64,000 nucleotides of DNA from a virus (IMGVR_UViG_3300038701_001470:1970-65969), one strand, 5' to 3'; counted from the stretch's first letter, positions 27 through 41,681 are shown. Made by a program: numbers and translations. Notes: generated from the letters alone by a model not told the origin.

Positions 27-716
27 ATGATCCCGCGACACGACATGATCACTCATGCTTTTCGACGGAAGCTGGTTGAGGCCGGTGTCGAAATCCTCGA
101 GTTCGAGGCTCGAATGACTCGGGGAAAATCCCGGTTCGGAATCAAATACTACGGGCTTCGAGAACTGATGGCGCGTAAAGAAGCGGTTCGCTACACGATC
201 ATCGACACCGATGTTCTCTTTCTCGATTACCCGACGTTCGTAGGCCCTCAGATCGAAGCCCCGGTAATCACGATCCGATCAAATGGGAAGAAGGTTCGAG
301 GTCACCACAACCAGTTTTGGGATCATGCCTACGAGTGCGCTGAACTTCCCAGGCCGGAAAATGTCTGGACTCGATGCGCTCAGGTTCATCCTTTCATCCA
401 CGGTTGCTACCTTTCGGTTCACTCCAGTCAGAAAGAGCTCGTCGACGAGTGGGCCCGAATCTTCCCGAAGCTTCACAAGCGTCTCACTGGCCGGATGAGA
501 AATCATCTCGACGAGGTTGCAATGTCGATCTCGATTATGAAGGTCGTAGGAACCCGTTTTCTATTCAGCGATGAAGGCCGATACTGGCCGATGATCGAGA
601 AAGACATGAGAGGGAAGAAAGTCACAAAAACCCTTTCCGCGATCGCCCATTACAGTCACCGTCGACACGAGAAGATGAGAACCGATTTGAGGATCATCCG
701 GAATCAGACCAAATGA
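27..716 (+). CDS. putative glycosyltransferase (GT-A fold, GT8-like)
   Basis: DxD-type motif YTIIDTDVLF, HLDEVAMS (DQ/DE-like), late IAHY motif; 4-nt overlap with next gene. Confidence 0.55.
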   Translation: MIPRHDMITHAFRRKLVEAGVEILEFEARMTRGKSRFGIKYYGLRELMARKEAVRYTIIDTDVLFLDYPTFVGPQIEAPVITIRSNGKKVRGHHNQFWDHAYECAELPRPENVWTRCAQVHPFIHGCYLSVHSSQKELVDEWARIFPKLHKRLTGRMRNHLDEVAMSISIMKVVGTRFLFSDEGRYWPMIEKDMRGKKVTKTLSAIAHYSHRRHEKMRTDLRIIRNQTK

Positions 717-1231
717 AAGAGCGATTACTACTGCAGGAGGAACGGGAATGGAATGCCTTTCTCGAGTACCTCAAGGGCCAGGACATTCACAGCATTTTGG
801 AAATCGGCGCCGGGAAAGGTGGTTCGATCTCATCGCTCTGCAAAACGCTTCCGGTCGATCGAGCTTTGACCATCGACAAGGAAGTGAAGAATGGATGGTT
901 TCGGAAAGTCACGGATCACATTGTCGAGCTTCGCCGTCTCGGGGTTGACGCCCAGGTTCATTACGGAGACAGCCGGCATCCTGCTACAATAGCCCGTGCG
1001 GTGAACTCTGGCCCCTACGATCTCGTGTTCATCGACGCTGATCACAGCTACGAAGCAGTTCGTTCAGATTGGTGGAATTACGGCAAGTTGGGTCGGATCA
1101 TTGCTTTTCACGACGTTATCGGGCATCATACCGGAGTTCCGAAACTTTGGAGACGGGTATCGAAGACTCGAACGAGTCGCACCTTCGAGACACCGGGATC
1201 CAGAAAAGGCATCGGAGTGATTGAACAGTGA
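713..1231 (+). CDS. class I SAM-dependent methyltransferase (Methyltransf_24-like)
   Basis: ILEIGAGKGGS motif I; YDLVFIDADHSYEAV and IIAFHDV motifs. Confidence 0.85.
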   Translation: MKERLLLQEEREWNAFLEYLKGQDIHSILEIGAGKGGSISSLCKTLPVDRALTIDKEVKNGWFRKVTDHIVELRRLGVDAQVHYGDSRHPATIARAVNSGPYDLVFIDADHSYEAVRSDWWNYGKLGRIIAFHDVIGHHTGVPKLWRRVSKTRTSRTFETPGSRKGIGVIEQ

Positions 1232-1956
1232 GCGCAAAAAAGACAGCAGCGAAGAGGAAGGCCCCGGCGAAGAAAGCCGCGGCGACTCGGAAGCGTGCAG
1301 TCAAAAAGAAGGCCGCGAAGAAGCAGGCTACCGCGAAGAAGGTGACCACGAAAAAGGTTGCCCGGGCGGTGAAGAAAGTCGCGACGAAGAAAGCAGCGGA
1401 GGCCGGATTCGCGACGAGTCAGGAAACGCTTTCTCAGGCAATGGGGATCTCGCGATCAACCCTGAACCGATTGAAGCGAATCAAAGGTTGTCCCACTGCG
1501 ACGGCAGACGGCCGATACAAGATTTCCGACTTCGCCGACTTCTACCAGAAGCACAAAAAAGCGGATCCGGCAGACGAAGCGGAAGCCGCGGCGCGGAAAG
1601 AACTGCGTGAACTCGATCTCGAGAAGAAGAGACTCGAAGTTGCTGAGCGCCGGATGGAGTATGATCTCAAGCGAGGTTTGCTCATGGACGCTGAGGAAGT
1701 GAAGCAGGTTCTCGGCGAGGCTTTCGGAGGCATCACTCAGACGATGCGCGATTCCGAAACGGCGATCGCTCCACAGGTAGCCGGCTGCGAATACATCGAA
1801 GCTCTTGAGATTGTCCGGAACTCAAATCGTGAGGCGCTGAGTCGTTTCTCCCTCGGCGATTGGGCAAAAAAAAAAGCATTCTGGCGGAACATTTTTGCCG
1901 AATTGCAAGACCTCCAGACGACATTCAACCCTGGGAGTGGGCAGAACGTCACGTAA
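1228..1956 (+). CDS. terminase small subunit-like protein with Lys/Ala-rich histone-like N-terminus
   Basis: Directly upstream of terL; HTH-like SQETLSQAMGISRSTLNRL followed by coiled coil; first ~55 aa almost only K/A/T/V. Confidence 0.65.
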   Translation: MSAKKTAAKRKAPAKKAAATRKRAVKKKAAKKQATAKKVTTKKVARAVKKVATKKAAEAGFATSQETLSQAMGISRSTLNRLKRIKGCPTATADGRYKISDFADFYQKHKKADPADEAEAAARKELRELDLEKKRLEVAERRMEYDLKRGLLMDAEEVKQVLGEAFGGITQTMRDSETAIAPQVAGCEYIEALEIVRNSNREALSRFSLGDWAKKKAFWRNIFAELQDLQTTFNPGSGQNVT

Positions 1957-3695
1957 TTGTTCCCCGGCGAAACACTGGCGAGAATTGGGACTCGAAGCAG
2001 GCCCCGTTCGTTCGTCAGATCATGGAGGATTTCAAGAATCCGAACATCAACGAGATTACGTGCATGTGTTCGGCTCAGTCTGCGAAGACGGAAACGATCA
2101 TGGCGCTGGTTGCCTGGGTCATCGATCAAGATCCCGGCCCGATCCTTTGGGTGACGACGAACATGCAGGAAGCGAGAAAGTTCGCTCGAGCTCGTCTCAT
2201 GCCTCTTCTCGAAAAATGCGGCCCGATCATCGACAAGATGCCAGCCGGCCGATACGACAAAACGACGACGGCCATTTATTTCCCGGGCGCTCCGCTTTTC
2301 ATCGTCGGTGCCGACTCCCCGGCCGCATTGCAGTCGACTCCGTTCCGATACATCTTTCTCGATGAGGTCAGATCGTGGAAGGAAGGCGCTCTGGAAATGG
2401 TTTCCAAGCGTGTTCGATCGTTCCCTCACAGCTACAAGAAGGTCGTAGTCTCAACGCCGGCGAAACAGGGCGATCATTTGCACCGTGCGTTCATGGCCGG
2501 GACTCAGAACGAGTGGCACGTGAAGTGCCCGGAGTGCGGGAACGAACACGCTCTCGAATGGGGAGACGAAAAGACACCTGGGGGCGTGAAATGGGACAGA
2601 ACGGAAGTCACAAAAGTGAACGGCGAGTATGATTACGAGGAATTGCTGAAAACGATTCGATACGAGTGCTGGAATTGCGATTACTCGTGGAGAGACACGC
2701 CGCGGGAGAGGAAGCAGCTCGCGAAACTCGGGCGATGGGTGCCTCAGAACGACAGGGCCCCGAAGAATGTGACGAGTTACACTTGGAATGCCGTCCTTCC
2801 ATGGTGGGCAAGTCTGAAAATGCAGGTTCGAGAAGGTCTGGACGCATTCAGAGCACTCAGTTTCGGCGCTTGGCAACCTCTCCGCGATCATCTGACGGAA
2901 ACGCGGGGGCAAATTTGGTCTGATGAGTACCGGTACCGCCAGAACAACGCGATCCTCGAGGACAGAACCACTGATTACTCTCCGACCGATCACGAGGCCA
3001 TGTCGAAAGCCCTGGGACGATGGGGAACGATTCAGATCCCGCTGAAAGTCGGTGATTTCAACGAAGTGAAGCGGATCATGAGCATCGACGTCCAAGGAAA
3101 GGGCGGTCGCCACTACTACACCGTGATTCGAGCGCACGAAATGGGCGGTCGGAGTCGATTACTCCACAATGAGAAGATTTGGAACGCCGATGAGATTCGC
3201 GGCCTGCAGCGAGACTGGAATGTGAACCCTGACGACGTAATTTTCGACGCCGCGCACTACTCGGATGAGATTTACCAGCTCATTCTCGCCTCGGGCGGGA
3301 AGTGGAAGGCTTTCAGGGGAGACAAGCGAGAGCATTTCAAGGTCGTGGGCTCGGACGGTAAGACGTACGAGCAGATGTGGACGAAAACCTACGCGGATCC
3401 AGCAATCGGAACTCACATGGAGGGACGGGTCGGAAAAATCCCGCTTTGGCTCTTCTCGAAGCCGACGACGATCGAGCGTCTTCAAAATCTCATCAGTGGA
3501 GTCATGCCTGGGTGGGAGATGCACGAAGACGCCGACGATGACTACCGAACTCAGGTGAATTCCTACTATCTCCACGAGTTTTTCGATACGAAGGGAAATC
3601 GATGCCTCGAATGGCGGTTCCGCGGGGATAACCACTACGCCGACTGCGAAAGGATGCAGATCGCGGCCCAAGACATCACGGGGCTGATTAACTGA
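1860..3695 (+). CDS. terL: terminase large subunit (lambda GpA family)
   Basis: RPPDDIQPWEWAE N-terminus, SAQSAKTE Walker A variant, YIFLDEV Walker B, VVVSTP motif, CPECG and CWNC Zn sites, IDVQ nuclease motif, NHYADC; start codon uncertain (TTG). Confidence 0.93.
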   Translation: MGKKKSILAEHFCRIARPPDDIQPWEWAERHVIVPRRNTGENWDSKQAPFVRQIMEDFKNPNINEITCMCSAQSAKTETIMALVAWVIDQDPGPILWVTTNMQEARKFARARLMPLLEKCGPIIDKMPAGRYDKTTTAIYFPGAPLFIVGADSPAALQSTPFRYIFLDEVRSWKEGALEMVSKRVRSFPHSYKKVVVSTPAKQGDHLHRAFMAGTQNEWHVKCPECGNEHALEWGDEKTPGGVKWDRTEVTKVNGEYDYEELLKTIRYECWNCDYSWRDTPRERKQLAKLGRWVPQNDRAPKNVTSYTWNAVLPWWASLKMQVREGLDAFRALSFGAWQPLRDHLTETRGQIWSDEYRYRQNNAILEDRTTDYSPTDHEAMSKALGRWGTIQIPLKVGDFNEVKRIMSIDVQGKGGRHYYTVIRAHEMGGRSRLLHNEKIWNADEIRGLQRDWNVNPDDVIFDAAHYSDEIYQLILASGGKWKAFRGDKREHFKVVGSDGKTYEQMWTKTYADPAIGTHMEGRVGKIPLWLFSKPTTIERLQNLISGVMPGWEMHEDADDDYRTQVNSYYLHEFFDTKGNRCLEWRFRGDNHYADCERMQIAAQDITGLIN

Positions 3696-3777: not shown

Positions 3778-4533
3778 TTAGACGTCCTGATCATAGGGCT
3801 TTCTGTCCGGAGAATCAAGCCCGCCTTGAATGATTTTCATCAATTCTTCGTCACTGGTTTCGTCGATGCAGTCGCAAAGCAGATAGTAGCTCTCAGTCGG
3901 ACACGCTTTCTTCGCAGCGGTCTCGAGAGCATGTCGATTCAGGATTCCGACGCTCTTTCCCTCGATGGCGACGGCCAGATCGAAGGCCGCGTAGAGATTC
4001 GATGCGGTTTCGGGCTCAGCCATCATGTTTTCATCCTCACGGGACAGGAAGCTGACATCGCATTGAGTGTTGGGTGTGTCCGGGATCGAAGGGTCTCCAG
4101 ACTCGGTTATCATGACCTTTCCCCACACGTATTCCTTCTCGAAGGCGTCGCATCCCCCGCCAGTTTCGATTTTCGAGAATCCGTAACGCTGAGCGATCCG
4201 GGTAGTCGTTTCTTCGTGTCCGGATCGGTATAGAGCGATCTTTTTGAGAACCAGAGAGACGATATTGTCTCTTTCGAGCTCTTGAGGGTAAAACCAAGCG
4301 ATCGGGGCGATTTCGAGGTCTGCCAGTCCGGTTTGGGGCGTCCAGTCTTTGCTGGCAATCTCTTCGACGAAAGATTTCTCGTGAAGAACTCCCAACGGGT
4401 CTTGTTTCTTGTCTCCCAAGCAAATCGCGTAGTCTCCGACGCAAAAGCTCAACGGATCGGTTTTCATGCACTGAAATCCGGCCGCGATGAGGCGATCGCC
4501 ACATTCTTTGATCAGATCTATCCGATTGCTCAT
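3778..4533 (-). CDS. hypothetical protein
   Basis: 251-aa ORF, ATG start, overlaps upstream gene by 4 nt; no motif recognised. Confidence 0.7.
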   Translation of the reverse strand: MSNRIDLIKECGDRLIAAGFQCMKTDPLSFCVGDYAICLGDKKQDPLGVLHEKSFVEEIASKDWTPQTGLADLEIAPIAWFYPQELERDNIVSLVLKKIALYRSGHEETTTRIAQRYGFSKIETGGGCDAFEKEYVWGKVMITESGDPSIPDTPNTQCDVSFLSREDENMMAEPETASNLYAAFDLAVAIEGKSVGILNRHALETAAKKACPTESYYLLCDCIDETSDEELMKIIQGGLDSPDRKPYDQDV

Positions 4534-4913
4534 GAGGTCGATTCAGGGGTTTCAGTGACGAGCTTTTCGGCGAGTTCATCGCTGATTTTCAGATATTCGC
4601 CACATTCCATGCAGTAGACTCGAACTGATTCATTTTCCGGGTCGAGATTGCCGTCGAACTCGATATTTCGCTCGATATGCTGATCGTCGTAGATGGTGAC
4701 GTCGACGGCGCTCGTCATCGTCTCTTTGCCTTCGCAATGAGGGCATTCTTCTGGAATTTCGGTAATTGGAGTCATGGATTTGTTGGTATGGGTGGAAATG
4801 ATGGATTTGATTTGGTGGATGGCTGAATCGGCCTCTGCGACTTTCTCGGGGTTTTCCGGATCGTCGCAGAGGCAAGTGAAGAGGTCGGTTAGCAGAGTTT
4901 CGAGCTGATCCAT
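4530..4913 (-). CDS. hypothetical protein with Zn-ribbon-like CxxC pairs
   Basis: Start moved to ATG 4913 (TAATG coupling to upstream stop); CPHC and CMEC motifs. Confidence 0.6.
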   Translation of the reverse strand: MDQLETLLTDLFTCLCDDPENPEKVAEADSAIHQIKSIISTHTNKSMTPITEIPEECPHCEGKETMTSAVDVTIYDDQHIERNIEFDGNLDPENESVRVYCMECGEYLKISDELAEKLVTETPESTS

Positions 4914-6082
4914 TATTCGACGGGTAGAACCTCGCCGAAAGGGGCGGTGTGAACGGATGAGTAGGAGGCCCACAGCGTAGGGTATGACGGCGGCTCATCC
5001 GGGAACGAACCGTACATGTCGGTGAGATAGATTAGGCAGGCCGGTGTGATCGCGTTCTTCTCGACGTAGTTGAACACCGGCTCGAAAGCGGTTCCGCCTC
5101 CCCCGGTGAAAGTCATCTGAACTTCATCGCCTCGCTCGAACGTCACGCATTGATGCACACGGGCGTCACAATCGATCAGATGGAGCGCGGAGGGCTGGCA
5201 GTCGTCAAAGATGCTGCGAACCTCAGCCATGAAGCGAGCGAGCATGTCAGCGCCGATAGATCCGGAGGTGTCGATGGCAACGACGACTTCTCCGAGAGCA
5301 TCGCCGTCGAGAGCCGGCAGAATGATCCGGCCTTGAGTCGCGGCCATGATTGACTTGTTCGGACGCACCCAGGAGTAGTCGTTCTGAACACGATCTTCCA
5401 CGAACTGTCGGAGAAGAACTTTCCACGGGAGTTCGGGCTCGAAGATCTCTTCGACGAGTCGCTTGAGGGTGGACGGCATATCGCCGCGCATCTTTTGGGC
5501 GATCGCGGCCTGTTGGACGTTGGCTTGCCACTTCGCCTCGAGCTCAGCCTGTTCCGCGTCGTCGGTAGCGGGAGTCGGAAGAATCTCGCCCGGGCCACAC
5601 GGGGCATCGTCATCGCCGTCTCCCCCGCTACCTTTCGGAGATTCGGGCGGATCCGGAATGCGGTTGTAGATGGCTTCCATGGCGAGGTCATCCCACTCGT
5701 GATTGATCAACGGCGGGAACTTCTGAGGCCAGGGGAATGTCCCGGCGCCAACTTCGGTATTCATGCTGTCGAGGCGATTGTTGATCGCGTAGTCAGCGGC
5801 CATGTTCGCCTTCTTGTGATTGAGCGAACGGTTTTGCATTCGGAAGCAGTGACCAAGGGCGCAATGAAGAACCTCATGGGCGATGATCGTTTTCAGTTCG
5901 CCGTCACTGAGTGAATCGACGAATGACGGATTGAAAAGCAGGTGAACTGCATCGGTCGCCATCGTCGGGATTTCGCGTGATTCGACGAGCTTGAGCTGGC
6001 ACGAAAGCACTCCGAAGAAAGGATGGTCGAGAACCAGCTGACATCGCTGATTGATGATTCGGGATTTAGAGTCGCTGTCCAT
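4913..6082 (-). CDS. putative metallopeptidase plus VWA domain protein (DUF2201-like)
   Basis: PTMATD, AHEVLH (HExxH), VAIDTSGS (MIDAS DxSxS), GGGGTAF, YLTDMYG. Confidence 0.88.
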   Translation of the reverse strand: MDSDSKSRIINQRCQLVLDHPFFGVLSCQLKLVESREIPTMATDAVHLLFNPSFVDSLSDGELKTIIAHEVLHCALGHCFRMQNRSLNHKKANMAADYAINNRLDSMNTEVGAGTFPWPQKFPPLINHEWDDLAMEAIYNRIPDPPESPKGSGGDGDDDAPCGPGEILPTPATDDAEQAELEAKWQANVQQAAIAQKMRGDMPSTLKRLVEEIFEPELPWKVLLRQFVEDRVQNDYSWVRPNKSIMAATQGRIILPALDGDALGEVVVAIDTSGSIGADMLARFMAEVRSIFDDCQPSALHLIDCDARVHQCVTFERGDEVQMTFTGGGGTAFEPVFNYVEKNAITPACLIYLTDMYGSFPDEPPSYPTLWASYSSVHTAPFGEVLPVE

Positions 6083-6443
6083 TTGGAAGAATTGGTTTGG
6101 AATTGCCTGTGGCCCGTTGAAGGCCGATGGTCTTGAGGATGAAATCGGTGGTTTCGTCGAACGTCATTTTGGTGACGTCGGCGGTTTGCTTGGTCTTGAG
6201 AACGACGTGGAAATACACGTTCTCAGTTTCCCAATAGAAGAGTTCGGTGCCAGTGGTGGAACCGATTTGCCAGTGAGTCAGCTTTTGAAACTGGTCGGGG
6301 AGAAGTTCGTTATCTACTCGCAGATCGAGAAAGAACTGCTGAACGAGACTTGTGATGGTGGGAATGACGAGACCCTCCTGAAAGCCAGGAAGGTCTCGCG
6401 CCAATGTCACCTTGGGGTAGGTGTCTTTGGACTTACCACTCAT
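6066..6443 (-). CDS. hypothetical protein
   Basis: 125-aa ORF coupled between AAA and VWA genes. Confidence 0.6.
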   Translation of the reverse strand: MSGKSKDTYPKVTLARDLPGFQEGLVIPTITSLVQQFFLDLRVDNELLPDQFQKLTHWQIGSTTGTELFYWETENVYFHVVLKTKQTADVTKMTFDETTDFILKTIGLQRATGNSKPILPNGQRL

Positions 6444-7567
6444 CCACCTGTATAAATCTCTTGGTTCGCTGAAACGTGGTTCAGGAATGCGCGAGTCTCG
6501 CAGATCTCGTCATTTGCCAGTTGGAAGGCATTTGAAGCGCCGATCTCGAACTCCTTTGGAAAGCGGGCGATGTAGGTGTAGGCCGCGGGAGCTGTGTCGG
6601 GAGTGACACGACGGGCCAGCGCCATGCTGAGAGCGTAGATCTTGTCCAGCTCATCGGGGCGAGGGCACTCCGTTCCGTTCGGATCTTTGAAGATGTCGTC
6701 GATGTCCGGAAGCTTCTCGAAGAGAGAGAGGTAGGCGTAGATCTCGGAGCCAACGGCCTCGCCGACAGCTGCCTGAACGATGTCGAGTTCGATCTTGCTG
6801 GTTTCGGTCTCATACCAGGCGTCCATGAGGTCGGAGAGGATATGAGCCGTGCGAGGGCAACAATACGGTGTGTCTTGCTCCCACTTTGCAGGATCGAAGC
6901 TCATGAGCGTTTCCGGCCGGAACTTGAAGAACGCGATCAGGCGCTCGTCGATTCCGAAAGGCATAGCCCACTCGACCCACTGATCGACGGACACTTCGAG
7001 TTGAAGGTGCCAGTAGCGGGACACGAGAGGCGATGGCATCCGAGAGACGACGCCTTTGTCGCCGAGGCGGTTACCGGTAGCGACCATGAACCAGCCATCG
7101 GCGATTGGCTCGCCGTTGATCTCGCGATCGAGCATGACCTGATACGTCGCTGCCTGAACTGCAGGAGGGGCGCTCGGAAGCTCTTCAAAGTTCCACTCGC
7201 CTTGAGCGGGAACGTGGCCGGCATCGACATTGCGCTGCAACGGGAATTGCCCGGGAGGGAGCCAGTAGCTCATCTGCTTTTCGAGGTCGACCGCGGGAAA
7301 GCCCTTGAGGTCGGTAGGGTCGAAGTAGAGAACACGGGAGTCGATGTAGCCGTAGGCGTTCTCGAGTTCGTCACCTGATACGTTGCCGATCATGTGAGGG
7401 CGCCACAGGATTCCGCCGAGTTGCTTCGCTCGCATTTCAGCGTGTGCCTTGAAAATATCGGACTTGCCGATACCGGGCCCGCCTCGAATGATCATCGGGC
7501 GTTTCGCCTTCTCTGCGAGGATGAGACGGCGCTTGAGTTTGGTTGGAGATACAGTTGGAAGTGCCAT
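6440..7567 (-). CDS. AAA+ ATPase (MoxR/AAA_5-like)
   Basis: GGPGIGKS Walker A, NFEEL Walker B variant, VATGNR sensor 1, PLVSRY arginine-finger region; adjacent VWA partner. Confidence 0.88.
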   Translation of the reverse strand: MALPTVSPTKLKRRLILAEKAKRPMIIRGGPGIGKSDIFKAHAEMRAKQLGGILWRPHMIGNVSGDELENAYGYIDSRVLYFDPTDLKGFPAVDLEKQMSYWLPPGQFPLQRNVDAGHVPAQGEWNFEELPSAPPAVQAATYQVMLDREINGEPIADGWFMVATGNRLGDKGVVSRMPSPLVSRYWHLQLEVSVDQWVEWAMPFGIDERLIAFFKFRPETLMSFDPAKWEQDTPYCCPRTAHILSDLMDAWYETETSKIELDIVQAAVGEAVGSEIYAYLSLFEKLPDIDDIFKDPNGTECPRPDELDKIYALSMALARRVTPDTAPAAYTYIARFPKEFEIGASNAFQLANDEICETRAFLNHVSANQEIYTGG

Positions 7568-7597
7568 TGTAGTATTGGATTTGTGGGTTTCTGAGAA

Positions 7598-7613
7598 TTC
7601 CTTACGTAAGGAA
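7598..7613. repeat. dispersed palindrome copy
   Basis: TTCCTTACGTAAGGAA. Confidence 0.95.
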
Positions 7614-7745
7614 ATTGAGAAGTTTGAGTAGTTGAATCAGCTGGCGACGAGTGGCTACCGGCTGGTTGTCTGAGTCGTAGAGATTTTCGTTGTCGTCGTT
7701 GCTCAGGTGATTTTCTATGAGTGCTTTGAGAACTTTGGGATCCAT
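7602..7745 (-). CDS. small hypothetical protein (47 aa; not in ORF track)
   Basis: ATG coupled to upstream TAA (TAATG at 7743-7747); MDPKVLKALIENHL...LLKLLNFLT; stop codon lies inside the palindrome at 7598. Confidence 0.45.
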   Translation of the reverse strand: MDPKVLKALIENHLSNDDNENLYDSDNQPVATRRQLIQLLKLLNFLT

Positions 7746-8596: not shown

Positions 8597-8619
8597 GGTG
8601 TTATACAGTTGGGTTTGAG

Positions 8620-8635: not shown

Positions 8636-8646
8636 AAGAGGGCATG

Positions 8647-33148: not shown

Positions 33149-33867
33149 GCGCATTCCCTTCCATTACCGGCATCAGGACTCATGGCAACACGGGCCTGAT
33201 TTTGAAACAAGCCACTACGCAGACTCAGAAAGATGGTCTGACTACCGGGACTGCGGTATTCACCCATCCTATGAGGGGAGCTGATACCGCGGGGCCAATG
33301 ATTGATTCTTCGCACCCGATGGTGAGTTGGCTTCGATGCGAGAAGAGAAACGTTACCTGGGGGCCGGGAATCGCGGTCATCAAATGCGACTTCGCCGGTC
33401 TGGATCCCAACGGGCCGGATGATACTCCACCGGTCTACGAGTTGCAGTTCGGAACCGGACAGGAACCGATCGAGATTCATCCCAAGTTCGCTTCGGAGCT
33501 TGGCGGGAAACCTTCGAGTCCACAGAACGGGGCGATCTACGTTGATCCTCAAGGCAATTTCACAACCGATGACCAGGTTGGAATGTTCGAGCGTTTCGCT
33601 ATCGACTCTGATCTCGCTGGCATCACACACTTCCTCGATACCGTCAATATCACTTGGCGAATGAAGTACACAGCGCGGTCGAAGCCGAGTGGTATGGGGA
33701 ACGTCGGAAAGATCGACTCTCCAGAAGGGGGGCCTCCAAACATCGGGGGGGCAAGGAATTGGCTTTACACTGGCCTCTCCTACACAGAACGTGGTGACGT
33801 GTTCTCAGTCGTGAAAGAGTGGAAAGGCTCTGGACGAAAAGGCTGGAACGGTCAAGTCTACGGCTGA
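33145..33867 (+). CDS. tail protein (distal tail position)
   Basis: Directly after tape measure; 240 aa. Confidence 0.55.
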   Translation: MSAFPSITGIRTHGNTGLILKQATTQTQKDGLTTGTAVFTHPMRGADTAGPMIDSSHPMVSWLRCEKRNVTWGPGIAVIKCDFAGLDPNGPDDTPPVYELQFGTGQEPIEIHPKFASELGGKPSSPQNGAIYVDPQGNFTTDDQVGMFERFAIDSDLAGITHFLDTVNITWRMKYTARSKPSGMGNVGKIDSPEGGPPNIGGARNWLYTGLSYTERGDVFSVVKEWKGSGRKGWNGQVYG

Positions 33868-35204
33868 TGCAGGAGCTACTGTCAAAGCTAACACCGGTCA
33901 AAGCAGGCGATGATGTATCGGTTGTGGCGAGCGAGATGCGCATCAATGCGATGCAGGAGGCTATTCATGCCCTTGCCGCAGGACGGAACATCAACGCTGG
34001 ATACGGTGTCTACAAAGGGGGAAGCCCCGGCGATGTGAACCTGTTCAGTGAACGGCAGCGATTCGTTCCACCGGGGAGACAGCCTCTTGAAATCTACGTG
34101 GTAGCCAAAGGCTCTGAGGAAGAGTACACCTACGAGGCCATGGTCACTCCCGGCGTGGTCTTTTCCTACACCGGAGAAGAGCTTGGTCACAAGAAGGTTC
34201 AGTTTCAGGGAGCTGAACTCGAAGTGGATGATCCGGAGCCTCCAAAGAAAACAGTCACCGGTGGAGAGACTGCCTACCTCGTGACTCGATGGATGTATCG
34301 TGATGACGCTCAGATGGAGCTTGTCACTGCCCTGATCGAAATCACTAACAGGGAGCCAAGACAGAACGAGTGTCGTCTCGCGAGAAAGATCGCTACTTTC
34401 GAGGCCGATGAAGCTACGGGCCGTGTGATCGTGAAGCAGGATTGGACGGGTAACCGAGACTGGTTTCGCTTCGATCCGATCGAGTGTTCCGGTTCGAGCT
34501 CGTCATCGAGTAGCAGTTCGAGTTCGTCCTCGAGTTCGCCGTCAAGCTCTTCTCCGAGTTCGAGTTCATCGTCTTCAAGTTCCGACAGTTCTGACGATAG
34601 TTCTTCGCCTCCCGACAGTTCATCTTCATCCGACTCATCGGACTCTTCTGATTCAGACGATCCGCCTCCAGATAGCTCGTCGTCTCCATCGCCTTCGGAC
34701 TCAGACGATTCGGATGATCCTCCCGGCTCTGATTCTCCAAGCCCTCCCGGTTCAGATGATTCAGGAGACCCGCCCGGAGGAAGCGGCAGTGGTTCTGACA
34801 AGAGCACGGCTATCGTTCCTGCCTCGTTCCATGATACCGGTTACACGGCTCTGTTCATTGCAGAGATGCCGGAAGTCAGGTTCGATGATGTCGTGACTGT
34901 TACCGTTCCGATTCGAGGCCGGTTCACTCGCACGAAGATCGATCCTCGATACGTAGAGGTTTGCCACAAGGGAACCATTCAAGCTTGCGGTTGGAGTGCT
35001 GATCGTCCAGGTGGCGTCGGTATCAAGATTGACGGCGACATGATTTCGATCGAGACTGGATGGTGGAAGCGCCCTACGGAAGTAGTGATTCGACTGACAG
35101 CTATTCGCCGGGGATTCAAAGACATGAGATTCCCATCGCGAACAAGGAAGCAGTTTGAAGAGAACGAGGCGTTCATCAATTCGGCATACTCAGCGAGTGA
35201 ATAA
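33867..35204 (+). CDS. tail-associated protein with ~100-aa Ser/Asp/Pro-rich linker
   Basis: Start moved to ATG 33867 (TGATG); poly-Ser tract at about 34488-34800 between two globular regions. Confidence 0.75.
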   Translation: MQELLSKLTPVKAGDDVSVVASEMRINAMQEAIHALAAGRNINAGYGVYKGGSPGDVNLFSERQRFVPPGRQPLEIYVVAKGSEEEYTYEAMVTPGVVFSYTGEELGHKKVQFQGAELEVDDPEPPKKTVTGGETAYLVTRWMYRDDAQMELVTALIEITNREPRQNECRLARKIATFEADEATGRVIVKQDWTGNRDWFRFDPIECSGSSSSSSSSSSSSSSSPSSSSPSSSSSSSSSDSSDDSSSPPDSSSSSDSSDSSDSDDPPPDSSSSPSPSDSDDSDDPPGSDSPSPPGSDDSGDPPGGSGSGSDKSTAIVPASFHDTGYTALFIAEMPEVRFDDVVTVTVPIRGRFTRTKIDPRYVEVCHKGTIQACGWSADRPGGVGIKIDGDMISIETGWWKRPTEVVIRLTAIRRGFKDMRFPSRTRKQFEENEAFINSAYSASE

Positions 35205-35737
35205 TGGATAGCGGAAGTGGAGACGAACCAAGCGCACCAAGCGGAAGCGGTGACTTTAGCGATCCGTCGTTCCCATCCTATCCGAGTGAGCCATCGTTCC
35301 CGTCTTACCCATCGGAGCCTCCAAGCGATCCTCCAAGCGATCCGCCGAGTGATCCGCCGAGTGACCCGCCTTCCGATCCAAGCGGAAGCGGGGGTTCTGG
35401 CGGTTCCGATTCAGGGGGGAGCGGAGGTTCTGATTCCGGTGGAAGTGGCGGCTCAGACTCGGGCGGTTCAGGAGGATCGGACTCAGGAGGTTCATCCGGG
35501 GGTGGGAGTTCTGGCGGTTCATCAGGAGGCGGTTCGTCAGATGGAAGTTCGGGCGGATCCGGATCATCGGCCAATGACTCCAGTGCAGATTCGAGCGGTG
35601 GTTCCAGTTCAGGATCATCGGCAAACAGTTCTGATTCAAGCCCGTCCGGTTCATCGTCATCAGGTTCATCGAACAACAGTTCGAGTAGCGGAAGTTCTAA
35701 ATCGTACTCGACCGTAGGTGAATCGATGGCAACATGA
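35204..35737 (+). CDS. wholly low-complexity Ser/Gly/Asp/Pro protein
   Basis: TAATG coupling; PSDP and GGSDSGGS repeats with varied synonymous codons. Confidence 0.65.
   Translation: MDSGSGDEPSAPSGSGDFSDPSFPSYPSEPSFPSYPSEPPSDPPSDPPSDPPSDPPSDPSGSGGSGGSDSGGSGGSDSGGSGGSDSGGSGGSDSGGSSGGGSSGGSSGGGSSDGSSGGSGSSANDSSADSSGGSSSGSSANSSDSSPSGSSSSGSSNNSSSSGSSKSYSTVGESMAT
35320..35500 (+). repeat. coding tandem repeats (12-nt PSDP units; 21-nt GGSDSGG-type units)
   Basis: ccaagcgatcct/ccaagcgatccg/ccgagtgatccg/ccgagtgacccg/ccttccgatcca followed by Gly/Ser repeats; end points approximate. Confidence 0.7.
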
Positions 35738-35741: not shown

Positions 35742-36608
35742 ATGGCTGATAAAATCGACTGCGTTTGGATGCTCGGAAAGGATTCCGACTTTGATAATTG
35801 GGAGGTCAGATATTCCCTTCGATCTTGTCTCAAGAACTTCCGCGACATGGGGACTCCATGGATCATCGGAGTGATACCGGACTGGATTGATCGTAACGAG
35901 GTGCGGTGCATCGACTTCCCTGATCCCTACACTTCCTGCAAAGATGCGAACCTGATCGGGAAGCTCTTGCGGCTCACGTTCGAGGAAGATCTATCAGAGC
36001 GGTTCATCTACTTCTCCGACGATCAATTCGTTCTCAGGGATTGCGGCCGGGATGACTTCAAGCCCTACCATTGCGGGGATCTATCGAAGGACAAATTTCA
36101 GGACGCTACCGGTTGGAGAATGCGTCTCTACCAGACCTATCTCTACCTTGAGAAGCACGGGAAAACTACATGGTCAATGGACGGCCACGTTCCCTATCCG
36201 GTGAACAAGTCAGTGGCTCGAAAGCTTCTCGAAACGAACTTCGGAGCGGGGAAAGGCTACACAATCTTCACTCTCTACTACAACTGGTGTCACTTCCCGG
36301 AACTCGGAGTCGAACCAGTCGCGATCAACTCAGATCGAATCCGCGGGACACTTCACGGCGAGGACGTTCCCCGCGAAACCGTTCTCGACAAGATGGGGAA
36401 GAACCTGTTTTGCAACTTCAACAATGCCTCGCTTCGGAACTTCCACATTACCTCCTACATGGAGAGCACGTTCTCTGAGGTGTCTCCCTACGAAAAGGAT
36501 GGGGGCGGTGAAATCCTCACTGACATGAGCAAAGTGGATTCGAGAATCGAACAGCTCAGAAGAGAACTGACGATCATGGAGCAAGCGAAGAAGATTGGCA
36601 ATGATTGA
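35742..36608 (+). CDS. Stealth-family-like hexose-1-phosphate transferase
   Basis: IDCVW, EVRYSLRS and FIYFSDDQF resemble Stealth CR1/CR2; start moved to ATG 35742. Confidence 0.6.
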   Translation: MADKIDCVWMLGKDSDFDNWEVRYSLRSCLKNFRDMGTPWIIGVIPDWIDRNEVRCIDFPDPYTSCKDANLIGKLLRLTFEEDLSERFIYFSDDQFVLRDCGRDDFKPYHCGDLSKDKFQDATGWRMRLYQTYLYLEKHGKTTWSMDGHVPYPVNKSVARKLLETNFGAGKGYTIFTLYYNWCHFPELGVEPVAINSDRIRGTLHGEDVPRETVLDKMGKNLFCNFNNASLRNFHITSYMESTFSEVSPYEKDGGGEILTDMSKVDSRIEQLRRELTIMEQAKKIGND

Positions 36609-37335
36609 ACTCGGGTATCAAGTCCACGCGGTAGCTCGCTCAGCTCACCACAGCTTCATTGCATGGCTGGCCTCGGGCTGCAGGATGAGGCCGGTTTACT
36701 ACCGGAACAATGTCGACCCATCGAAGAACCCTGACGAGTGGGATACTCGCTCGAGGATCGAAGGGCTGCAGCGAATGGCTGAGTTCAAGGATGCGAAAAC
36801 CGTGATCGAAAGCGGGGAGGTTTGGAGACTCGACGCCCCCAGGTTCATCGAAGTGAAGCGTAGCAGGGTTGTCATCTTCATGCGCGATCCGTTCAACAAT
36901 CTCGCGAGCTACGTGAAAGGCTTTCGGAAAGAAGGATCTCCAAGACTCAGGCCGGAGCCGACGTTCGCACGGGAGCGATGGATCTACCTCGCGAAAGAGT
37001 CTCTTCGTCATACTGAGCAGCTGGACAACGTGACTCTCGTTCTCTTCCACAAGTGGCGATACGATCCGGTCTACCGTCACTACGTCGCGACTCAGCTTGG
37101 CATCACTCCGAACGAAAGGCTGGTTGAGCATGTCGTCTCAGCGATCGGGGGAGGCTCTTCGTTCGACGGCCTGCAGTATCGCGGGAAGTCAGGAGAGATG
37201 GCGGTGCAGGAGCGATACAAGATCATGAGTGACGACGATGAGTTCCGGAGCCTGATCGACGACGAGGTGATAGATCTTTCCCGCGAACTGTTCCCTGACA
37301 TAACAGAAGAAGCAGTATCCTTCCTTGGCCTATGA
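36601..37335 (+). CDS. sulfotransferase-like P-loop protein
   Basis: ARSAHH (PSB-like), FMRDPFNNLASY (3'-PB), GGGSSFDG. Confidence 0.55.
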   Translation: MIELGYQVHAVARSAHHSFIAWLASGCRMRPVYYRNNVDPSKNPDEWDTRSRIEGLQRMAEFKDAKTVIESGEVWRLDAPRFIEVKRSRVVIFMRDPFNNLASYVKGFRKEGSPRLRPEPTFARERWIYLAKESLRHTEQLDNVTLVLFHKWRYDPVYRHYVATQLGITPNERLVEHVVSAIGGGSSFDGLQYRGKSGEMAVQERYKIMSDDDEFRSLIDDEVIDLSRELFPDITEEAVSFLGL

Positions 37336-38114
37336 GCAAAAACGCAATCATCGCCTTCGCTATCGGGAACCATTGCCGCGTGAACATGAAACGCGCTCAG
37401 CTTTGGTTCGAGTCCCTTCGCACGCTCGGAGAGTTCGATGGAGATTTGATCTTCCTTCACGGGAAGATGCTTCAAGGAACCACGTTCCCGGATGAACTCA
37501 ACGTGACGACACATCAGATCGGAGGATGGCGACCGTTCAAGAAAGCCCGGGCGAATATTTTCAAACTGGTCATCAACAAGCATATCGATCTCTCTGGATA
37601 TGATCTTGTTCTCGGGATGGACTGCGACCTTTGCGCGATGGGGCCCGTCTCTGTCCTCTTCGATGAGTTCACCGGTGGAGTTCAGGCGATGCAGGTCGAA
37701 AGGCCCTTCTCGAAATGGTTCGATGAGTCCGACCACTCCAGCTTCAAAGGAAGGGCCGGTTTCAATTCGGGTGTGATCCTCACGGAAGGCTCTCAGTTCG
37801 CCTCTCTCTGCGAGCAATGGCTCTCGGTTCACATGGAGAGGGAGAAGACGCTGCGACGGTTCAGCAGCTACGCAGATCAACACAGCTTCAATCTCATGGC
37901 CCTTCGTGGAGTCGTAGAGGTGAATCCCTTTGAGGAATACCGCGTGATGACTGCGAACCCCGTGGCCGGCTACGACCTAAAGGACAATTCAGTCTACCCG
38001 AAGACTCGAATCATCCACTACACAGGGAAGAAGCCGGGAGAGAAAGTCGCACCGATCTACTGGCACTATTATTCTCGTCTTGGGATCCCGTTGGGAGCGC
38101 CGGAGATTCCTTAG
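37332..38114 (+). CDS. glycosyltransferase (GT8-like)
   Basis: GMDCD (DxD), FNSGVIL, ADQHSFN, IIHYTGKKP. Confidence 0.8.
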   Translation: MSKNAIIAFAIGNHCRVNMKRAQLWFESLRTLGEFDGDLIFLHGKMLQGTTFPDELNVTTHQIGGWRPFKKARANIFKLVINKHIDLSGYDLVLGMDCDLCAMGPVSVLFDEFTGGVQAMQVERPFSKWFDESDHSSFKGRAGFNSGVILTEGSQFASLCEQWLSVHMEREKTLRRFSSYADQHSFNLMALRGVVEVNPFEEYRVMTANPVAGYDLKDNSVYPKTRIIHYTGKKPGEKVAPIYWHYYSRLGIPLGAPEIP

Positions 38115-38677
38115 CCCTTGAGAGTGGCCTCGATCATTTCCCAATTCTCTTTCTCGACTCCCTTGTTCTTGAGAACGCACTGGTAGGGAATCGATTTTTC
38201 ACGAAAGACGAGGCAGGTCTTGTCCTGATGCCTCTGATCGAATCCGATCTTTGTGACAACGTGATCAGCGGCGAGGTCGAAAGTGTGAACGTCTCCCCTT
38301 TGGTGGGTGTGATCATCGCCTACCCCTTGGATCTCTTCACCGGTGAAAGTCATCTCGACATTCGGGTGGATGATGCGCGGAGGTTTACCGGCGAGGCAGT
38401 CAGTCTCCAGTGCCTCATGGCTGGCCTCGTGTTCTACTACCTCGTAATCATAGAACAAGTTCCGGATCGCTCCCTTCAACGTCACGCTATCGAATTCGCT
38501 GCGATGATTGTGAAGTGATCTCGCGACGGCCGGAATGTCCTTCGAGTAGAAGTGGTACTTGTGTTTGATACCGCGTCGATCTTTCCCCATGATCAAGATG
38601 ATCATTCCGAAGCCGTGATAGTACGGTGCCTTTTTGCATTTCCTTCGCAGTTCATCTATCGTCGGGAGTTCGATCAT
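38111..38677 (-). CDS. cupin-fold-like hypothetical protein
   Basis: SLHNHRSEFDS (HxH) and DVHTF motifs; opposite strand within late region. Confidence 0.45.
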   Translation of the reverse strand: MIELPTIDELRRKCKKAPYYHGFGMIILIMGKDRRGIKHKYHFYSKDIPAVARSLHNHRSEFDSVTLKGAIRNLFYDYEVVEHEASHEALETDCLAGKPPRIIHPNVEMTFTGEEIQGVGDDHTHQRGDVHTFDLAADHVVTKIGFDQRHQDKTCLVFREKSIPYQCVLKNKGVEKENWEMIEATLKG

Positions 38678-38701
38678 GGTTTCGGATTTTACCCCCTCAG
38701 A

Positions 38702-39619
38702 ATGAAGAAAGCAACGGTCATAGGCGCTGGAATATTTGGAAGCGTTCTTTCAATGCGCCTATCGGACAACGGTTATCGGGTAGACCTTCTTGAGAAAGGT
38801 AGCGAGGCCATGCTCGGAGCGAGTGAGAAGAATCATTGCCGGTACCACTACGGATTCCACTATCCTCGATGCCCGGAGACCGTAGCTCAAATCAAGTGGG
38901 CCGGGAATCATCTCACGCAATACCTGGGGCTGTTCCTCGACTATTTGCCCCACTACTACGGAATTGCCGATTCAGGATCGAAAATATCCTACCAAGATTT
39001 TTCTAAATTCGCTGAAACAGTCGGTCATTTCATGCCTTGCTCGAATGAAGCGATCAAAAGCGTAGAGGGGGGAGGTCTCGCAGACGAACCAGTCTGGAAT
39101 CTCTCGGAGCTTAGGCAGGCGGTGACAAGGCGGCTTCAATCCGATCCAAACATCAACGTGTTCCTAGATCATGAAGTGAAAGACGAAATTCCGAAGGGGA
39201 TTGTCTTCGACTGCACCTACCGCGGGGATGGCGTTCCCGATGTAAAAAAACAGGAGTGCTTCATGCTTGAGTACGAGGGGTTGCCTCTCAATGGCAGTGC
39301 GACAATCATGGATGGCCCTTTTTGCTCGCTGATGTCGTCAGGGAAGAACCGTCATCGTCTCTGGCATGTCACGGAATCAGTTCAGGGAACGCCGGGGTCT
39401 ATGGTGGATGAGTCCCTTCGATTCTTTCCGTTCCTCAAAAGAAGCAGTCGTTCAAAGTTCAAACTGGTTCGCACGATACCAGTCCAGAAGGTTTTCGTTC
39501 CGACCGGGGGCGATGGGAAGCCGACGAGAATTGTTGAGCTCGAGGATCGTATTGCCATCATCGGAGGAAAGATGCAGACTGCACTGATGTTCGCCGACAA
39601 AGCGATCGCCATGCTATGA
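38702..39619 (+). CDS. FAD-dependent oxidoreductase (DAO-like)
   Basis: VIGAGIFG dinucleotide fold, LEK, GAS..NH.RYHYGFHYPR; start moved to ATG 38702. Confidence 0.85.
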   Translation: MKKATVIGAGIFGSVLSMRLSDNGYRVDLLEKGSEAMLGASEKNHCRYHYGFHYPRCPETVAQIKWAGNHLTQYLGLFLDYLPHYYGIADSGSKISYQDFSKFAETVGHFMPCSNEAIKSVEGGGLADEPVWNLSELRQAVTRRLQSDPNINVFLDHEVKDEIPKGIVFDCTYRGDGVPDVKKQECFMLEYEGLPLNGSATIMDGPFCSLMSSGKNRHRLWHVTESVQGTPGSMVDESLRFFPFLKRSSRSKFKLVRTIPVQKVFVPTGGDGKPTRIVELEDRIAIIGGKMQTALMFADKAIAML

Positions 39620-40248
39620 CCCAGCTGGAATTCTACGCTGAAAAATACTCCCCGGAATCAGGACTCCACATCTCGGGGTCTACACTTCTCAAACTGAGAG
39701 GGCTTCCCCGAAAAGTCTCCGACATTGATTTGTCAGTGAAGCACTGCCACTTCGATGAAGCGGTGGACTTCCTGACTGAGAACTTCTATCCCGATTCAGT
39801 AGAGCAACACGTTCGAGCGAAGCGGTTCATCATCCGGAGCCATGCGCCGAAAGGGAAACAGTTCAAGTTCGATGTCGTCGCTGACATTGGAAGGATGAAG
39901 GATCGATACCCGGAGGGCGGGCTGACAACGATCGATGTCCACGGAAAGGAAGTGAGTGCGTTCTCAATCGAGTACGCCATTGCCTACAAGTTTCACTGGC
40001 TCGTGACTCAGGTGAACGGCATCCGTCCGAAGCATATCTTCGACATTCAGTGGTCAATCACTCATCTTGAGTTTGATCGTGATCTTTTCCGGGCAATGAT
40101 GAAGGATCAGTACGGTGACTTTGACCAGGACAAAGCGAGACGTAGGATCGAACCTCTCTGGAAGAACTACAAGCAGTGCGTCAATCACTTCAACGTAAAA
40201 TCCCCACCCTACCCAAAGGCTCTCGAAATTTGCTTCTCTCTGCTATGA
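39616..40248 (+). CDS. AbiEii-family nucleotidyltransferase-like protein
   Basis: SGSTLL...RKVSDID, YAIAYK, RPKHIFDI. Confidence 0.65.
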   Translation: MTQLEFYAEKYSPESGLHISGSTLLKLRGLPRKVSDIDLSVKHCHFDEAVDFLTENFYPDSVEQHVRAKRFIIRSHAPKGKQFKFDVVADIGRMKDRYPEGGLTTIDVHGKEVSAFSIEYAIAYKFHWLVTQVNGIRPKHIFDIQWSITHLEFDRDLFRAMMKDQYGDFDQDKARRRIEPLWKNYKQCVNHFNVKSPPYPKALEICFSLL

Positions 40249-40853
40249 CAATCGTTTTCGGCTCAACCGGCTCAATCGGATCTCACTTCTGCGAACACAC
40301 GATTCACAAGCCCATCATCTTCCGTCCGACCAAGGAAGAATTCGACATGGCGAATCCGAACTACGCAGTTCCCAATGAGGGAGTGAAGAACGTCGTCTTT
40401 GCTCAGGGATTGAACCCTGAAATCATAGCGAATCAGAATGCCAGTAGAGCACGTGAGATGATGGCCCTGAATGTCCTCGGGCCACTCGAAGTGATCGAGG
40501 CGCTTCACAACTACGGGAACACTGAGATGTCTTTCGTCTTCATCGGATCAATCTCCGCTCGTAAGGGAAGCGTTGATCCTTCCTACGCTGCAGCCAAGTC
40601 CGCTCTCGACGGGATGATGGCCTCGTTGGTGAAGTCCTATCCGGACAGTCGATTCAACACGCTCTCTCTCGGACTCGTTTCCGGATCCCGGATAGCCAAA
40701 GCAATGGGAGGGAAGGGAAGGCGGCGACACGCTCTCAATATGGGAGGCCGTCTCGTTCAGAAGGCCGATGTGACGTCGGCGATCGATTTCATTCTCTCGA
40801 ATGGCTCCATGAACAACTCGAATCTGTCCCTCGATCGGGGATTCAGATTATAG
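40245..40853 (+). CDS. short-chain dehydrogenase/reductase
   Basis: GSTGSIG, FIGSIS, YAAAK (YxxxK); start moved to ATG 40245. Confidence 0.85.
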   Translation: MTIVFGSTGSIGSHFCEHTIHKPIIFRPTKEEFDMANPNYAVPNEGVKNVVFAQGLNPEIIANQNASRAREMMALNVLGPLEVIEALHNYGNTEMSFVFIGSISARKGSVDPSYAAAKSALDGMMASLVKSYPDSRFNTLSLGLVSGSRIAKAMGGKGRRRHALNMGGRLVQKADVTSAIDFILSNGSMNNSNLSLDRGFRL

Positions 40854-41681
40854 GTTGTCGATATTGTGAGCGCCCTTGTGCCCTCGCTTCCGGGAACGTC
40901 CGTTCGCTCTTCGACGCTTCACTTCGGGTGGAGTGAAGCCGTGGGGAACCTCGTAGATTGAGGGATTGGGAAAGCGTTCTCGCAGGGCCTCGATGACGTT
41001 CGGATCGGTTGAGGATACCGGATCGATGGCAGTGAACATGCAGTGATCAAAAACCTTCTTGATGTCAGATCGACGATAATCCTCCAGCCAAATCGGTTTG
41101 AAAACGTGATTTCGGATTTTTTTCACAGGGGTTTCCGCGACGTTGTGATACAGCTCCACGTTGATAAAATTCCTGTCCCATGCCGCGGCGAGAAGTTCAG
41201 CGGCTTTCCCGTAGTTGATCAGGTGCGGAATATGGCCCTCGATTCGATGATGGGTGTGCCCGTTCTCTCGGAGCCAAGTCATCGTCCGGTTGAGATTGTT
41301 TCTCCACTTGCTTCGAGCGCGTACCATTCTCCCAGGCAATGTGTAGGGGCCGAAATCATCGACGGACTCGATGGACGAAAGAGCGAATTGATCATCGTTC
41401 CACCACACGAAATGCTTGTCAGTGGGGGTTCCTCTTCCGACTTCGATTGCGGCGGCCGCGGCGAGCTTCAAAGTGATGTTGCTCTCTCGCTTCCTCTTGA
41501 ACGGATCCGGAAAGGGAATGTGATGAACCTTGTCACTGACGCATCCCGGTTTCCTTCCGATGATGATGATTCGATCGAGTAGGGCTGGATCTACGTTCTC
41601 TGCGATGGATCGAAGGGCGATTCTCAGCTCCCAATCGTTCAATTCAGAACTCGGGCCGATGGGAAAGATGATGTCTATCAT
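40848..41681 (-). CDS. second Stealth-family-like protein
   Basis: IDIIF, ELRIALRS, FVWWNDDQF, EGHIP; paralogous by eye to 35742..36608. Confidence 0.6.
   Translation of the reverse strand: MIDIIFPIGPSSELNDWELRIALRSIAENVDPALLDRIIIIGRKPGCVSDKVHHIPFPDPFKRKRESNITLKLAAAAAIEVGRGTPTDKHFVWWNDDQFALSSIESVDDFGPYTLPGRMVRARSKWRNNLNRTMTWLRENGHTHHRIEGHIPHLINYGKAAELLAAAWDRNFINVELYHNVAETPVKKIRNHVFKPIWLEDYRRSDIKKVFDHCMFTAIDPVSSTDPNVIEALRERFPNPSIYEVPHGFTPPEVKRRRANGRSRKRGHKGAHNIDNL

Follow-up and report, generated by a model that had tools for sequence, protein, structure and literature searches.

What does a tailed phage gain from enzymes that build, phosphoglycosylate, sulfate and methylate glycans when their genes are interleaved with those for its virion? 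The question is raised by a 64,000-nucleotide stretch of virus DNA (IMGVR_UViG_3300038701_001470:1970-65969; the window), which makes up 64 kb out of a 67,577-bp single-contig virus record rated complete by CheckV. A first-pass annotation had proposed nine such genes, namely three GT8-like and one GT11-like glycosyltransferase (GT) genes, two Stealth-like genes, two sulfotransferase-like genes and one S-adenosylmethionine (SAM) methyltransferase gene, and had read them as a toolkit for modifying virion proteins rather than DNA or the host surface. All nine open reading frames (ORFs) are present at or near the positions proposed for them (Table 1). Our analysis points, with moderate confidence, to a cytoplasmic Ser-O-phosphoglycosylation by a Stealth-family transferase of the stalk of a tail-fibre-type protein and of a neighbouring Ser/Gly protein, followed by glycan extension, sulfation and methylation.

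The two proposed acceptors are encoded immediately upstream of the first Stealth gene (Stealth 1). The fibre gene is placed after the tape-measure gene and the gene for a 240-aa tail protein, and the serine tracts are written with a mixture of all six Ser codons, so that they are kept at the protein level and are not DNA repeats. The C-terminal domain of the fibre (~130 residues) was modelled from a 12-sequence alignment as a beta-sandwich followed by a helix (predicted local distance difference test score, pLDDT, 80.5), and the model resembles predicted phage tail, minor tail and tail-fibre proteins (E down to 3e-13); Foldseek returned no PDB match at E <= 0.001, and a profile search of PDB sequences returned none. 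The gene for the tail protein is joined to that for the fibre by TGATG, and the fibre gene to that for the Ser/Gly protein by TAATG; a 4-nt gap then precedes Stealth 1, which the gene for a sulfotransferase-fold protein overlaps by 8 nt, and ATGA leads on to a GT8-like gene. Throughout, toolkit genes either overlap their neighbours in the ATGA manner or stand a few bases apart from them, and glycosyltransferase and methyltransferase genes are located inside the structural operon. The late-strand coupling described in the first-pass annotation therefore holds, except for the second Stealth gene (Stealth 2), which lies on the opposite strand in a separate cassette.

Based on profile comparisons, both Stealth genes encode true members of the family, with predicted sugar-1-phosphate transferase activity. 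The two proteins are paralogues (25% identity, E 3e-21), and in an alignment of both with nine database relatives (11 members) the residues E29, R31, R35, D101, D102, H157 and P159, belonging to an ELRYSLRS motif, a DD pair and an H-x-P motif, are invariant in all members, including both window paralogues. Searched against PDB, the profile of this alignment matched the catalytic domain of GNPTAB (N-acetylglucosamine-1-phosphotransferase; E 2e-15) and M. tuberculosis CpsY (7e-6). Pfam Stealth_CR2 (PF11380) is matched by nine of the 11 members, a window protein taken alone scoring 26.6 bits, under the cut-off of 39.4; CR1 is matched by none of the members and CR4 by two of 11 (E 0.0014), and a C-terminal FP-x-PS-x-E aligns weakly with GNPTAB. 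The CR2/CR3 core and the three motifs are shared with GNPTAB, CpsY and the meningococcal capsule polymerases, which are themselves Stealth family members. Compared with known Stealth enzymes, the phage proteins are minimal (~245-290 aa), soluble and linked to poly-Ser proteins.

Table 1. Features of the window discussed in the text, in order of position
Feature	Position	Strand	Remarks
3' part of 275-aa gene, candidate GT-A glycosyltransferase	1-716	+	full gene = genome 1858-2685, start 112 nt before window
SAM-dependent methyltransferase (Methyltransf_24 / O-methyltransferase type)	713-1231	+	coupled to terS
gpA-type large terminase	1860-3695		
GT11-like (fucosyltransferase-fold) gene	15751-16593	+	between small head gene and portal; ATGA overlaps both sides
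Lambda-family portal	16590-18290		
Major head protein	23953-24912		
Two-domain protein, C-terminal ~260 aa GT-A fold (GT8/Nucleotid_trans-like), DSD motif	26443-27834	+	GT-A fold at residues ~200-463
Sulfotransferase-like protein (Sulfotransfer_2 type)	27831-28505	+	PRTGGTS (5'-phosphosulfate-binding, 5'-PSB) and RRPDKVMIS (3'-phosphate-binding, 3'-PB) motifs
Tail-fibre-type protein, proposed acceptor	33867-35204	+	N-terminal domain, poly-Ser/Asp/Pro stalk, C-terminal beta-sandwich knob
Poly-Ser/Asp/Pro tract, ~100 residues	34488-34799	+	densest 30-residue window: 28 Ser/Thr
177-aa Ser/Gly/Asp/Pro-repeat protein, second proposed acceptor	35204-35737	+	42% Ser+Thr
Stealth-family hexose-1-phosphate transferase 1 (predicted)	35742-36608	+	4 nt 3' of Ser/Gly protein
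Sulfotransferase-fold protein	36601-37335	+	8-nt overlap with Stealth stop
GT8/Nucleotid_trans-like GT-A glycosyltransferase, DCD motif	37332-38114	+	last gene of late block
Convergent cassette	38111-42958	mixed	188-aa gene (minus), FAD/NAD-binding oxidoreductase, two AbiEii-like nucleotidyltransferases, SDR/epimerase-family protein, Stealth 2
Possible accessory genes	38552-40853	+	FAD/NAD-binding oxidoreductase (likely start near 38702), AbiEii-like nucleotidyltransferase, SDR/epimerase-family protein; Pfam matches
Stealth-family transferase 2 (predicted)	40848-41681	-	convergent cassette, coupled to AbiEii-like nucleotidyltransferase

The arrangement of a poly-Ser protein followed by Stealth and a GT, sulfotransferase or methyltransferase gene is found again in Planctomycetota genomes as well as in unrelated phage contigs. 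In IMG/VR, a profile scan picked up at least 167 stretches that encode a relative of Stealth, and 80 loci were retained from it. Stealth 1 has its nearest database relative in P0002 (43% identical), which is likewise preceded by a Ser-rich ORF, and a Ser-rich ORF occupies the position of the Ser/Gly protein in G001, a complete 64.9-kb phage with terminal repeats, as well as in L009, L010, L084, L102, L103 and L105. The fibre C-terminal domain recurs 1-2.6 kb upstream of Stealth in L009, L010 and L066, in each case with a poly-Ser tract before it and another Ser-rich ORF after it, and the corresponding position in L004, L006 and L007 is held by unrelated proteins that are rich in cysteine and bear poly-Ser or (SP)n tracts. 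The closest Stealth relatives (L004, L006/L007, L009, L010, L066, G001 and L101) thus have a poly-Ser or (SP)n protein directly upstream, and these proteins belong to no fewer than three unrelated types. Within the 4.5-kb same-strand zone upstream of Stealth, 13 of 477 ORFs are poly-Ser ORFs versus 20 of 3299 elsewhere (Fisher p 9e-5, which overstates the enrichment because related loci are not independent). On the Stealth tree, every poly-Ser-linked gene falls into one 17-row clade (Shimodaira-Hasegawa-like approximate likelihood ratio test, SH-aLRT, 97), and the poly-Ser label requires two changes compared with a shuffled mean of 7.7, with none of 500 shuffles as low.

A reverse search with the fibre C-terminal domain alone gave 11 viral loci and seven genome loci, and most of the homologues are Ser-stalked. 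Among the Ser-stalk lineages with enough downstream sequence, Stealth was found at no more than 8 kb in six of 11; L108 also carries a Sulfotransfer_2-like gene, and L089 carries a GT25 gene. Collagen-like G-X-Y repeats replace the Ser stalk in L092/L093 and L094, and cysteine-containing repeats do so in L087; no Stealth gene was found at the collagen-type fibre loci. Tandem paralogous fibre genes, with collagen-like stalks and a C-terminal domain as in the window fibre, were also observed in L092 (7380-9517) and L094 (5316-8330). In L107, a Tepidisphaerales metagenome-assembled genome (MAG), the ORF after the fibre gene (8344-9642) has a Ser-rich N-terminal part and, read by eye rather than by Pfam scan, a SAM methyltransferase-like domain.

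At these loci, Stealth is often fused with enzyme families for which the window has separate genes, and such fusions provide what we regard as the best evidence that these families act in one pathway. Stealth and Methyltransf_24 form one polypeptide in L009, Stealth is fused with Mannosyl_trans3 and an FkbM methyltransferase in L010, and Sulfotransfer_4/3 is fused with Stealth in L066, where a GT32-like gene follows. In G001, Stealth is fused with GT2/7-like and pyruvyl transferase domains and followed by an O-FucT-like gene. Stealth, Nucleotid_trans and Sulfotransfer_2 genes stand in this order in L006. L004 encodes a fusion of GT32-like, Stealth and Erv1/Alr sulfhydryl oxidase domains (9251-11224) adjoining the cysteine-rich poly-Ser protein, which hints at phage-directed disulfide formation in the cytoplasm.

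In the mechanism that we propose, the fibre protein and the Ser/Gly protein would be produced late in infection, and the co-translated Stealth 1 would move sugar-1-phosphate from a nucleotide sugar to the serine hydroxyls of the stalk, possibly with extension to sugar-phosphate chains. The GT-A/GT8-like and GT11-like transferases would then lengthen the glycan, and the two sulfotransferase-like enzymes, using host 3'-phosphoadenosine 5'-phosphosulfate (PAPS), together with the SAM methyltransferase would cap it. The resulting dense anionic glycan would stiffen the serine tract to a rod, at the position where related fibres would form a collagen-like triple helix. No transmembrane segment or signal peptide was found in any toolkit enzyme, which fits enzyme action in the cytoplasm, the site of virion assembly.

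Several points weigh against this mechanism. The analysis shows gene families, their order and coupling, the recurrence of the module, the fusions and the fibre-like fold of the C-terminal domain, whereas we infer the acceptor, the chemistry, the order of the steps and the timing, the last from gene order only. In bacteria, the Stealth enzymes characterised so far either modify glycans or assemble capsule polymers; known members of the family phosphorylate N-glycan mannose or polymerise capsule sugar-phosphates, and none is known to act on protein serine, so that direct transfer to a protein serine would be an extrapolation. Adjacency alone is weak evidence, because accessory genes are commonly inserted downstream of tail-fibre genes. 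A sister Stealth subclade has no Ser-rich neighbour, and in five of the 11 Ser-stalk fibre lineages Stealth is missing from the nearest 8 kb; the link between poly-Ser proteins and Stealth is therefore frequent rather than obligatory. Six of the nine enzyme calls fall under Pfam gathering thresholds, and one gene is without a family. Finally, the other glycan genes are scattered (at 15751, at 26443 and before terS) and have no counterparts in G001, and may therefore serve other targets.

The principal rival, which we consider unlikely, is that the enzymes remodel glycans of the host envelope (capsule, extracellular polysaccharide (EPS), lipopolysaccharide (LPS) or surface glycoproteins), whether as a block to superinfection, as an aid to release or as 'moron' genes, and that proximity to the fibre reflects an insertion hot spot. 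Bacterial Stealth proteins make capsules and EPS, in line with the CpsY match, and a close Stealth relative (P0006) stands alone in a bacterial genome; the glycan genes are also variable insertions relative to G001, and Stealth 2 occupies its own convergent cassette on the other strand. Nonetheless, a hot spot alone would explain neither the link to poly-Ser proteins of unrelated families nor the clade-wise pattern on the Stealth tree, and the genes are translationally coupled within the late structural block, lack signal peptides and membrane segments, and are accompanied by no tyrosine integrase homologue that we could find. The earlier proposal of virion protein modification is thus favoured by the solubility of the enzymes, their co-translation with tail genes, the poly-Ser fibre linkage and the failure to find homologues of a tyrosine integrase or of a hydroxymethylase-type thymidylate synthase; its target is narrowed, in our reading, from the whole virion to the fibre stalk.

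The enzymes predicted to cap the glycan differ in how readily they can be assigned. The methyltransferase exceeds its Pfam gathering cut-off (PF13578, 39 bits vs 26.3) and has homologues in eight Stealth-bearing phage loci. Both sulfotransferase-like proteins, in contrast, are supported below Pfam thresholds. The protein encoded at 27831 matches Sulfotransfer_1 at E 0.008 and aligns by hhalign (85%, E 6e-6, 183 columns) with phage Sulfotransfer_2-like proteins that flank Stealth genes; its single-sequence AlphaFold2 (AF2) model has a pLDDT of 34, a word-based search of 5.8 billion proteins found only itself, and single-sequence phmmer against PDB gave chance-level matches only. The protein encoded at 36601 has no Pfam match, and the Atlas model of the exact protein resembles Sulfotransfer_3/1 clusters (template modelling score, TM, 0.60-0.80); its 3'-PB motif (RDPFNNLAS) is present and its 5'-PSB motif is degenerate (ARSAHHS). 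Six-frame genome searches with PF03567 and PF13469 found nothing, and neither sulfotransferase-like protein has a tblastn match in GenBank phages.

Among the glycosyltransferase candidates, the GT11-like call likewise stands on support below the Pfam threshold, its Atlas structure resembling GT11 clusters (TM 0.69-0.73) and its sequence carrying the motif HVRRGE (an HxRRxD-type motif being expected of GT11) and matching PF01531 at E 0.096 (12.3 bits vs a cut-off of 23.9). Two of the three GT8-like calls can be kept as GT-A/GT8-like on the same terms. The gene at 37332 matches GT8 (PF01501) at E 0.006 (16.6 bits vs 24.3) and an NCBIfam model for LPS alpha-1,3-galactosyltransferase at 4e-5, and aligns over its full length (BLASTP E 1e-8) with an L006 protein that passes the Nucleotid_trans cut-off and adjoins a Stealth gene; single-sequence phmmer against PDB gave chance-level matches only for this gene and for the GT11-like gene. 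The C-terminal domain of the protein encoded at 26443 scores 0.95 on Atlas features and resembles WaaO-type GT8 and Nucleotid_trans clusters (TM 0.60-0.68; model pLDDT only 0.62), its N-terminal 200 residues contain no recognised domain, and hhalign against a small GT-A alignment was not significant. The third call, on the 275-aa gene cut by the window edge, is left with a DTD motif and weak matches: BLASTP E 0.014 over 142 aa to the L006 Nucleotid_trans protein, a non-significant hhalign probability of 12% against the same GT-A alignment, no match in Pfam, PHROG or NCBIfam, only itself in the word-based search of 5.8 billion proteins, and one weak remote relative (P0013, in a phage-like contig) in an exhaustive HMMER search of 1.8 billion representatives. 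PF01501 matched neither this gene nor that at 26443.

Given these scores, one could argue that several calls are over-readings of divergent ORFs and that no coherent pathway exists, an argument fed by the six genes of nine under Pfam cut-offs, by the two (at 27831 and the 275-aa gene) without sequence relatives in the word-based search, and by the low pLDDT of one model. Independent lines of evidence concur for most genes, and the same families, above Pfam cut-offs, adjoin or fuse with Stealth in other phages, so we consider this explanation very unlikely.

Comparison with G001 separates what is constant from what varies. The two phages share 47% identity in terL, 42% in the portal, 46% in the major head protein and 52% in the tail tube, as well as the order of tape-measure, tail protein and fibre genes, and G001 keeps the fibre, the small Ser-rich ORF and a Stealth fusion arrangement. 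The other glycan genes of the window have no counterparts there: the GT11-like gene is an insertion relative to G001, which lacks it at this position, and shows no similarity to the O-FucT-like gene of that phage. In G001, ORFs that by eye, rather than by a scan, read as fibre-like, beta-helix and lysin-like occupy the head/tail-tube slot, which holds the GT-A and sulfotransferase pair in the window. Judged by this comparison, the toolkit is a variable accessory set surrounding a conserved fibre-Stealth core. An 11-kb leftward block (3778-14875, minus strand) separates terminase from portal and encodes a DUF2201 metallopeptidase/VWA protein, a Pol III beta-like clamp and a DUF4942 methyltransferase; four genes of this block have counterparts in G001.

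Whether the glycan is placed on head proteins instead is a question raised by the same slot. Two copies of a small head decoration/scaffold-like protein (23541-23888 and 26048-26446) are 47% identical (E 1e-29), and the second, which overlaps the start of the GT-A gene, has gained a C-terminal tail of 17 residues rich in Ser, Thr and Asp; this copy is a possible second acceptor. It bears on the alternative that virion proteins are glycosylated mainly in the head or elsewhere in the tail, as in mycobacteriophages, with poly-Ser acting only as a flexible linker, and the GT-A and sulfotransferase pair (26443-28505) that follows it and the GT11-like gene among head genes are in keeping with that explanation. 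We regard it as improbable, since no conserved linkage was found for such targets, the genes concerned are without counterparts in G001, and the poly-Ser protein is the only recurrent pathway partner found across phages.

Modification of phage DNA, in the form of glycosylated or hypermodified bases, appears extremely unlikely. Some phages do glycosylate DNA, and this phage has the separate DUF4942-type methyltransferase; however, no homologue of a hydroxymethylase of the thymidylate synthase type was found, the genes are in the virion block rather than the replication block, and the Stealth, GT8, GT11 and carbohydrate sulfotransferase families are not, to our knowledge, known to act on DNA.

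For Stealth 2 and its cassette, a purpose unconnected with the fibre is quite possible. Either the synthesis of a special sugar donor or a part in defence or anti-defence is conceivable for the convergent cassette, and a role in sugar supply for its possible accessory genes is a guess; for the oxidoreductase gene at 38552, phmmer against PDB gave weak N-terminal flavoprotein matches only, at chance level.

The phage is far from known phages, in that no GenBank phage gave a megablast match for 20 kb of the window and the portal is less than 25% identical to that of any GenBank phage. Single-protein scans of IMG/VR (Stealth, major head protein, terL and the sulfotransferase at 36595) revealed no close relatives, and ten head and tail genes had next to no matches in PHROG. 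Identical DNA, with zero differences, is present in algae metagenomes from two studies, in one of them, possibly the source sample, at ~706-fold contig depth (33000-38200). All seven genome loci with the fibre domain are in Planctomycetota MAGs (Pirellula, Thermoguttaceae, Gemmatales, Tepidisphaerales and Planctomycetaceae), and the host is therefore probably a planctomycete, living on algae. Shine-Dalgarno sequences are missing from the late genes, and in many of these TTGACA stands 4-16 nt 5' of the start codon (18285-18296, 22195-22221, 26024-26050, 28505-28519, 29564-29590), as would suit a host whose translation or promoter signals are unusual, for example a planctomycete.

Partial parallels exist in Gram-positive bacteria, where serine-rich-repeat adhesins (by GtfA/B and GT8 enzymes) and Ser-Asp repeats (by SdgA/B) are glycosylated in the cytoplasm. 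The window resembles these systems in the long Ser-rich stalks of fibrillar adhesins and in cytoplasmic O-glycosylation partly by GT8 enzymes, and differs from them in being viral, in having sulfotransferases and in its proposed initiation by a Stealth phosphotransferase; a GT4 GtfA/GtfB-type initiating pair was not recognised in the scans made, none of which was targeted at it. In eukaryotes, phosphoglycosylation of serine is known from the GlcNAc-1-P-Ser (GlcNAc, N-acetylglucosamine) of Dictyostelium proteinase I and from Leishmania proteophosphoglycans. The glycofibril TLP-2 from pond water has been modelled by cryo-electron microscopy as a linear X-Ser repeat with a phosphodiester-linked glycan per Ser, the peptide forming a thin core within a glycan rod (doi 10.1101/2025.09.30.679562, preprint). 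Like the eukaryotic proteins and TLP-2, the window encodes Ser-rich repeats that would carry phosphodiester-linked glycans; we know of no gene set, from phages or from bacteria, that has been linked to structures of this kind.

The closest phage precedent is that of mycobacteriophages, in which phage glycosyltransferases and an O-methyltransferase modify the phage's own capsid and tail tube (Freeman et al. 2023, PMC10527164, as cited in PMC11600133). GT and methyltransferase genes among structural genes, and own virion proteins as targets in the host cytoplasm, are common to both. The mycobacteriophage targets are capsid and tail tube, and no Stealth phosphotransferase or sulfotransferase is reported, whereas the window is predicted to combine a poly-Ser stalk, a phosphodiester linkage, sulfation and a planctomycete host. 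Full-text literature searches found virion glycosylation for mycobacteriophages and giant viruses only, and turned up nothing published on Stealth genes or phosphoglycosylation in phages, or on sulfotransferases within their structural modules. The most likely role of the enzymes, coating the phage's own poly-Ser fibre stalk, would thus be a type of phage protein modification that still awaits description.

Few systems with glycosylated phage virions are known, and only with plain O-glycans. If true, the recurrent combination of a poly-Ser fibre with Stealth, sulfotransferases and methyltransferases would bring phosphodiester-linked glycans, and sulfated ones, into phage biology, and would provide a function for the widespread phage family PHROG 7999 (function unknown so far), of which relatives are encoded in at least 167 IMG/VR stretches. 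A further step, which we put forward tentatively and think unlikely, is that the stalk becomes a stiff 'glycofibril' consisting mostly of carbohydrate, in which a peptide thread would bear sulfated phosphoglycan at almost all of its serines, such that glycan rather than protein would be the working surface of the fibre. Such a stalk would resemble the X-Ser phosphoglycan fibrils of unknown origin from pond water, and might be recognised by the polysaccharide-capturing surface of planctomycete hosts on sulfated algal glycans. The module offers a candidate genetic basis of environmental Ser-phosphoglycan fibrils, and Planctomycetota, for which few phage systems exist, are indicated as the hosts in which to test it.

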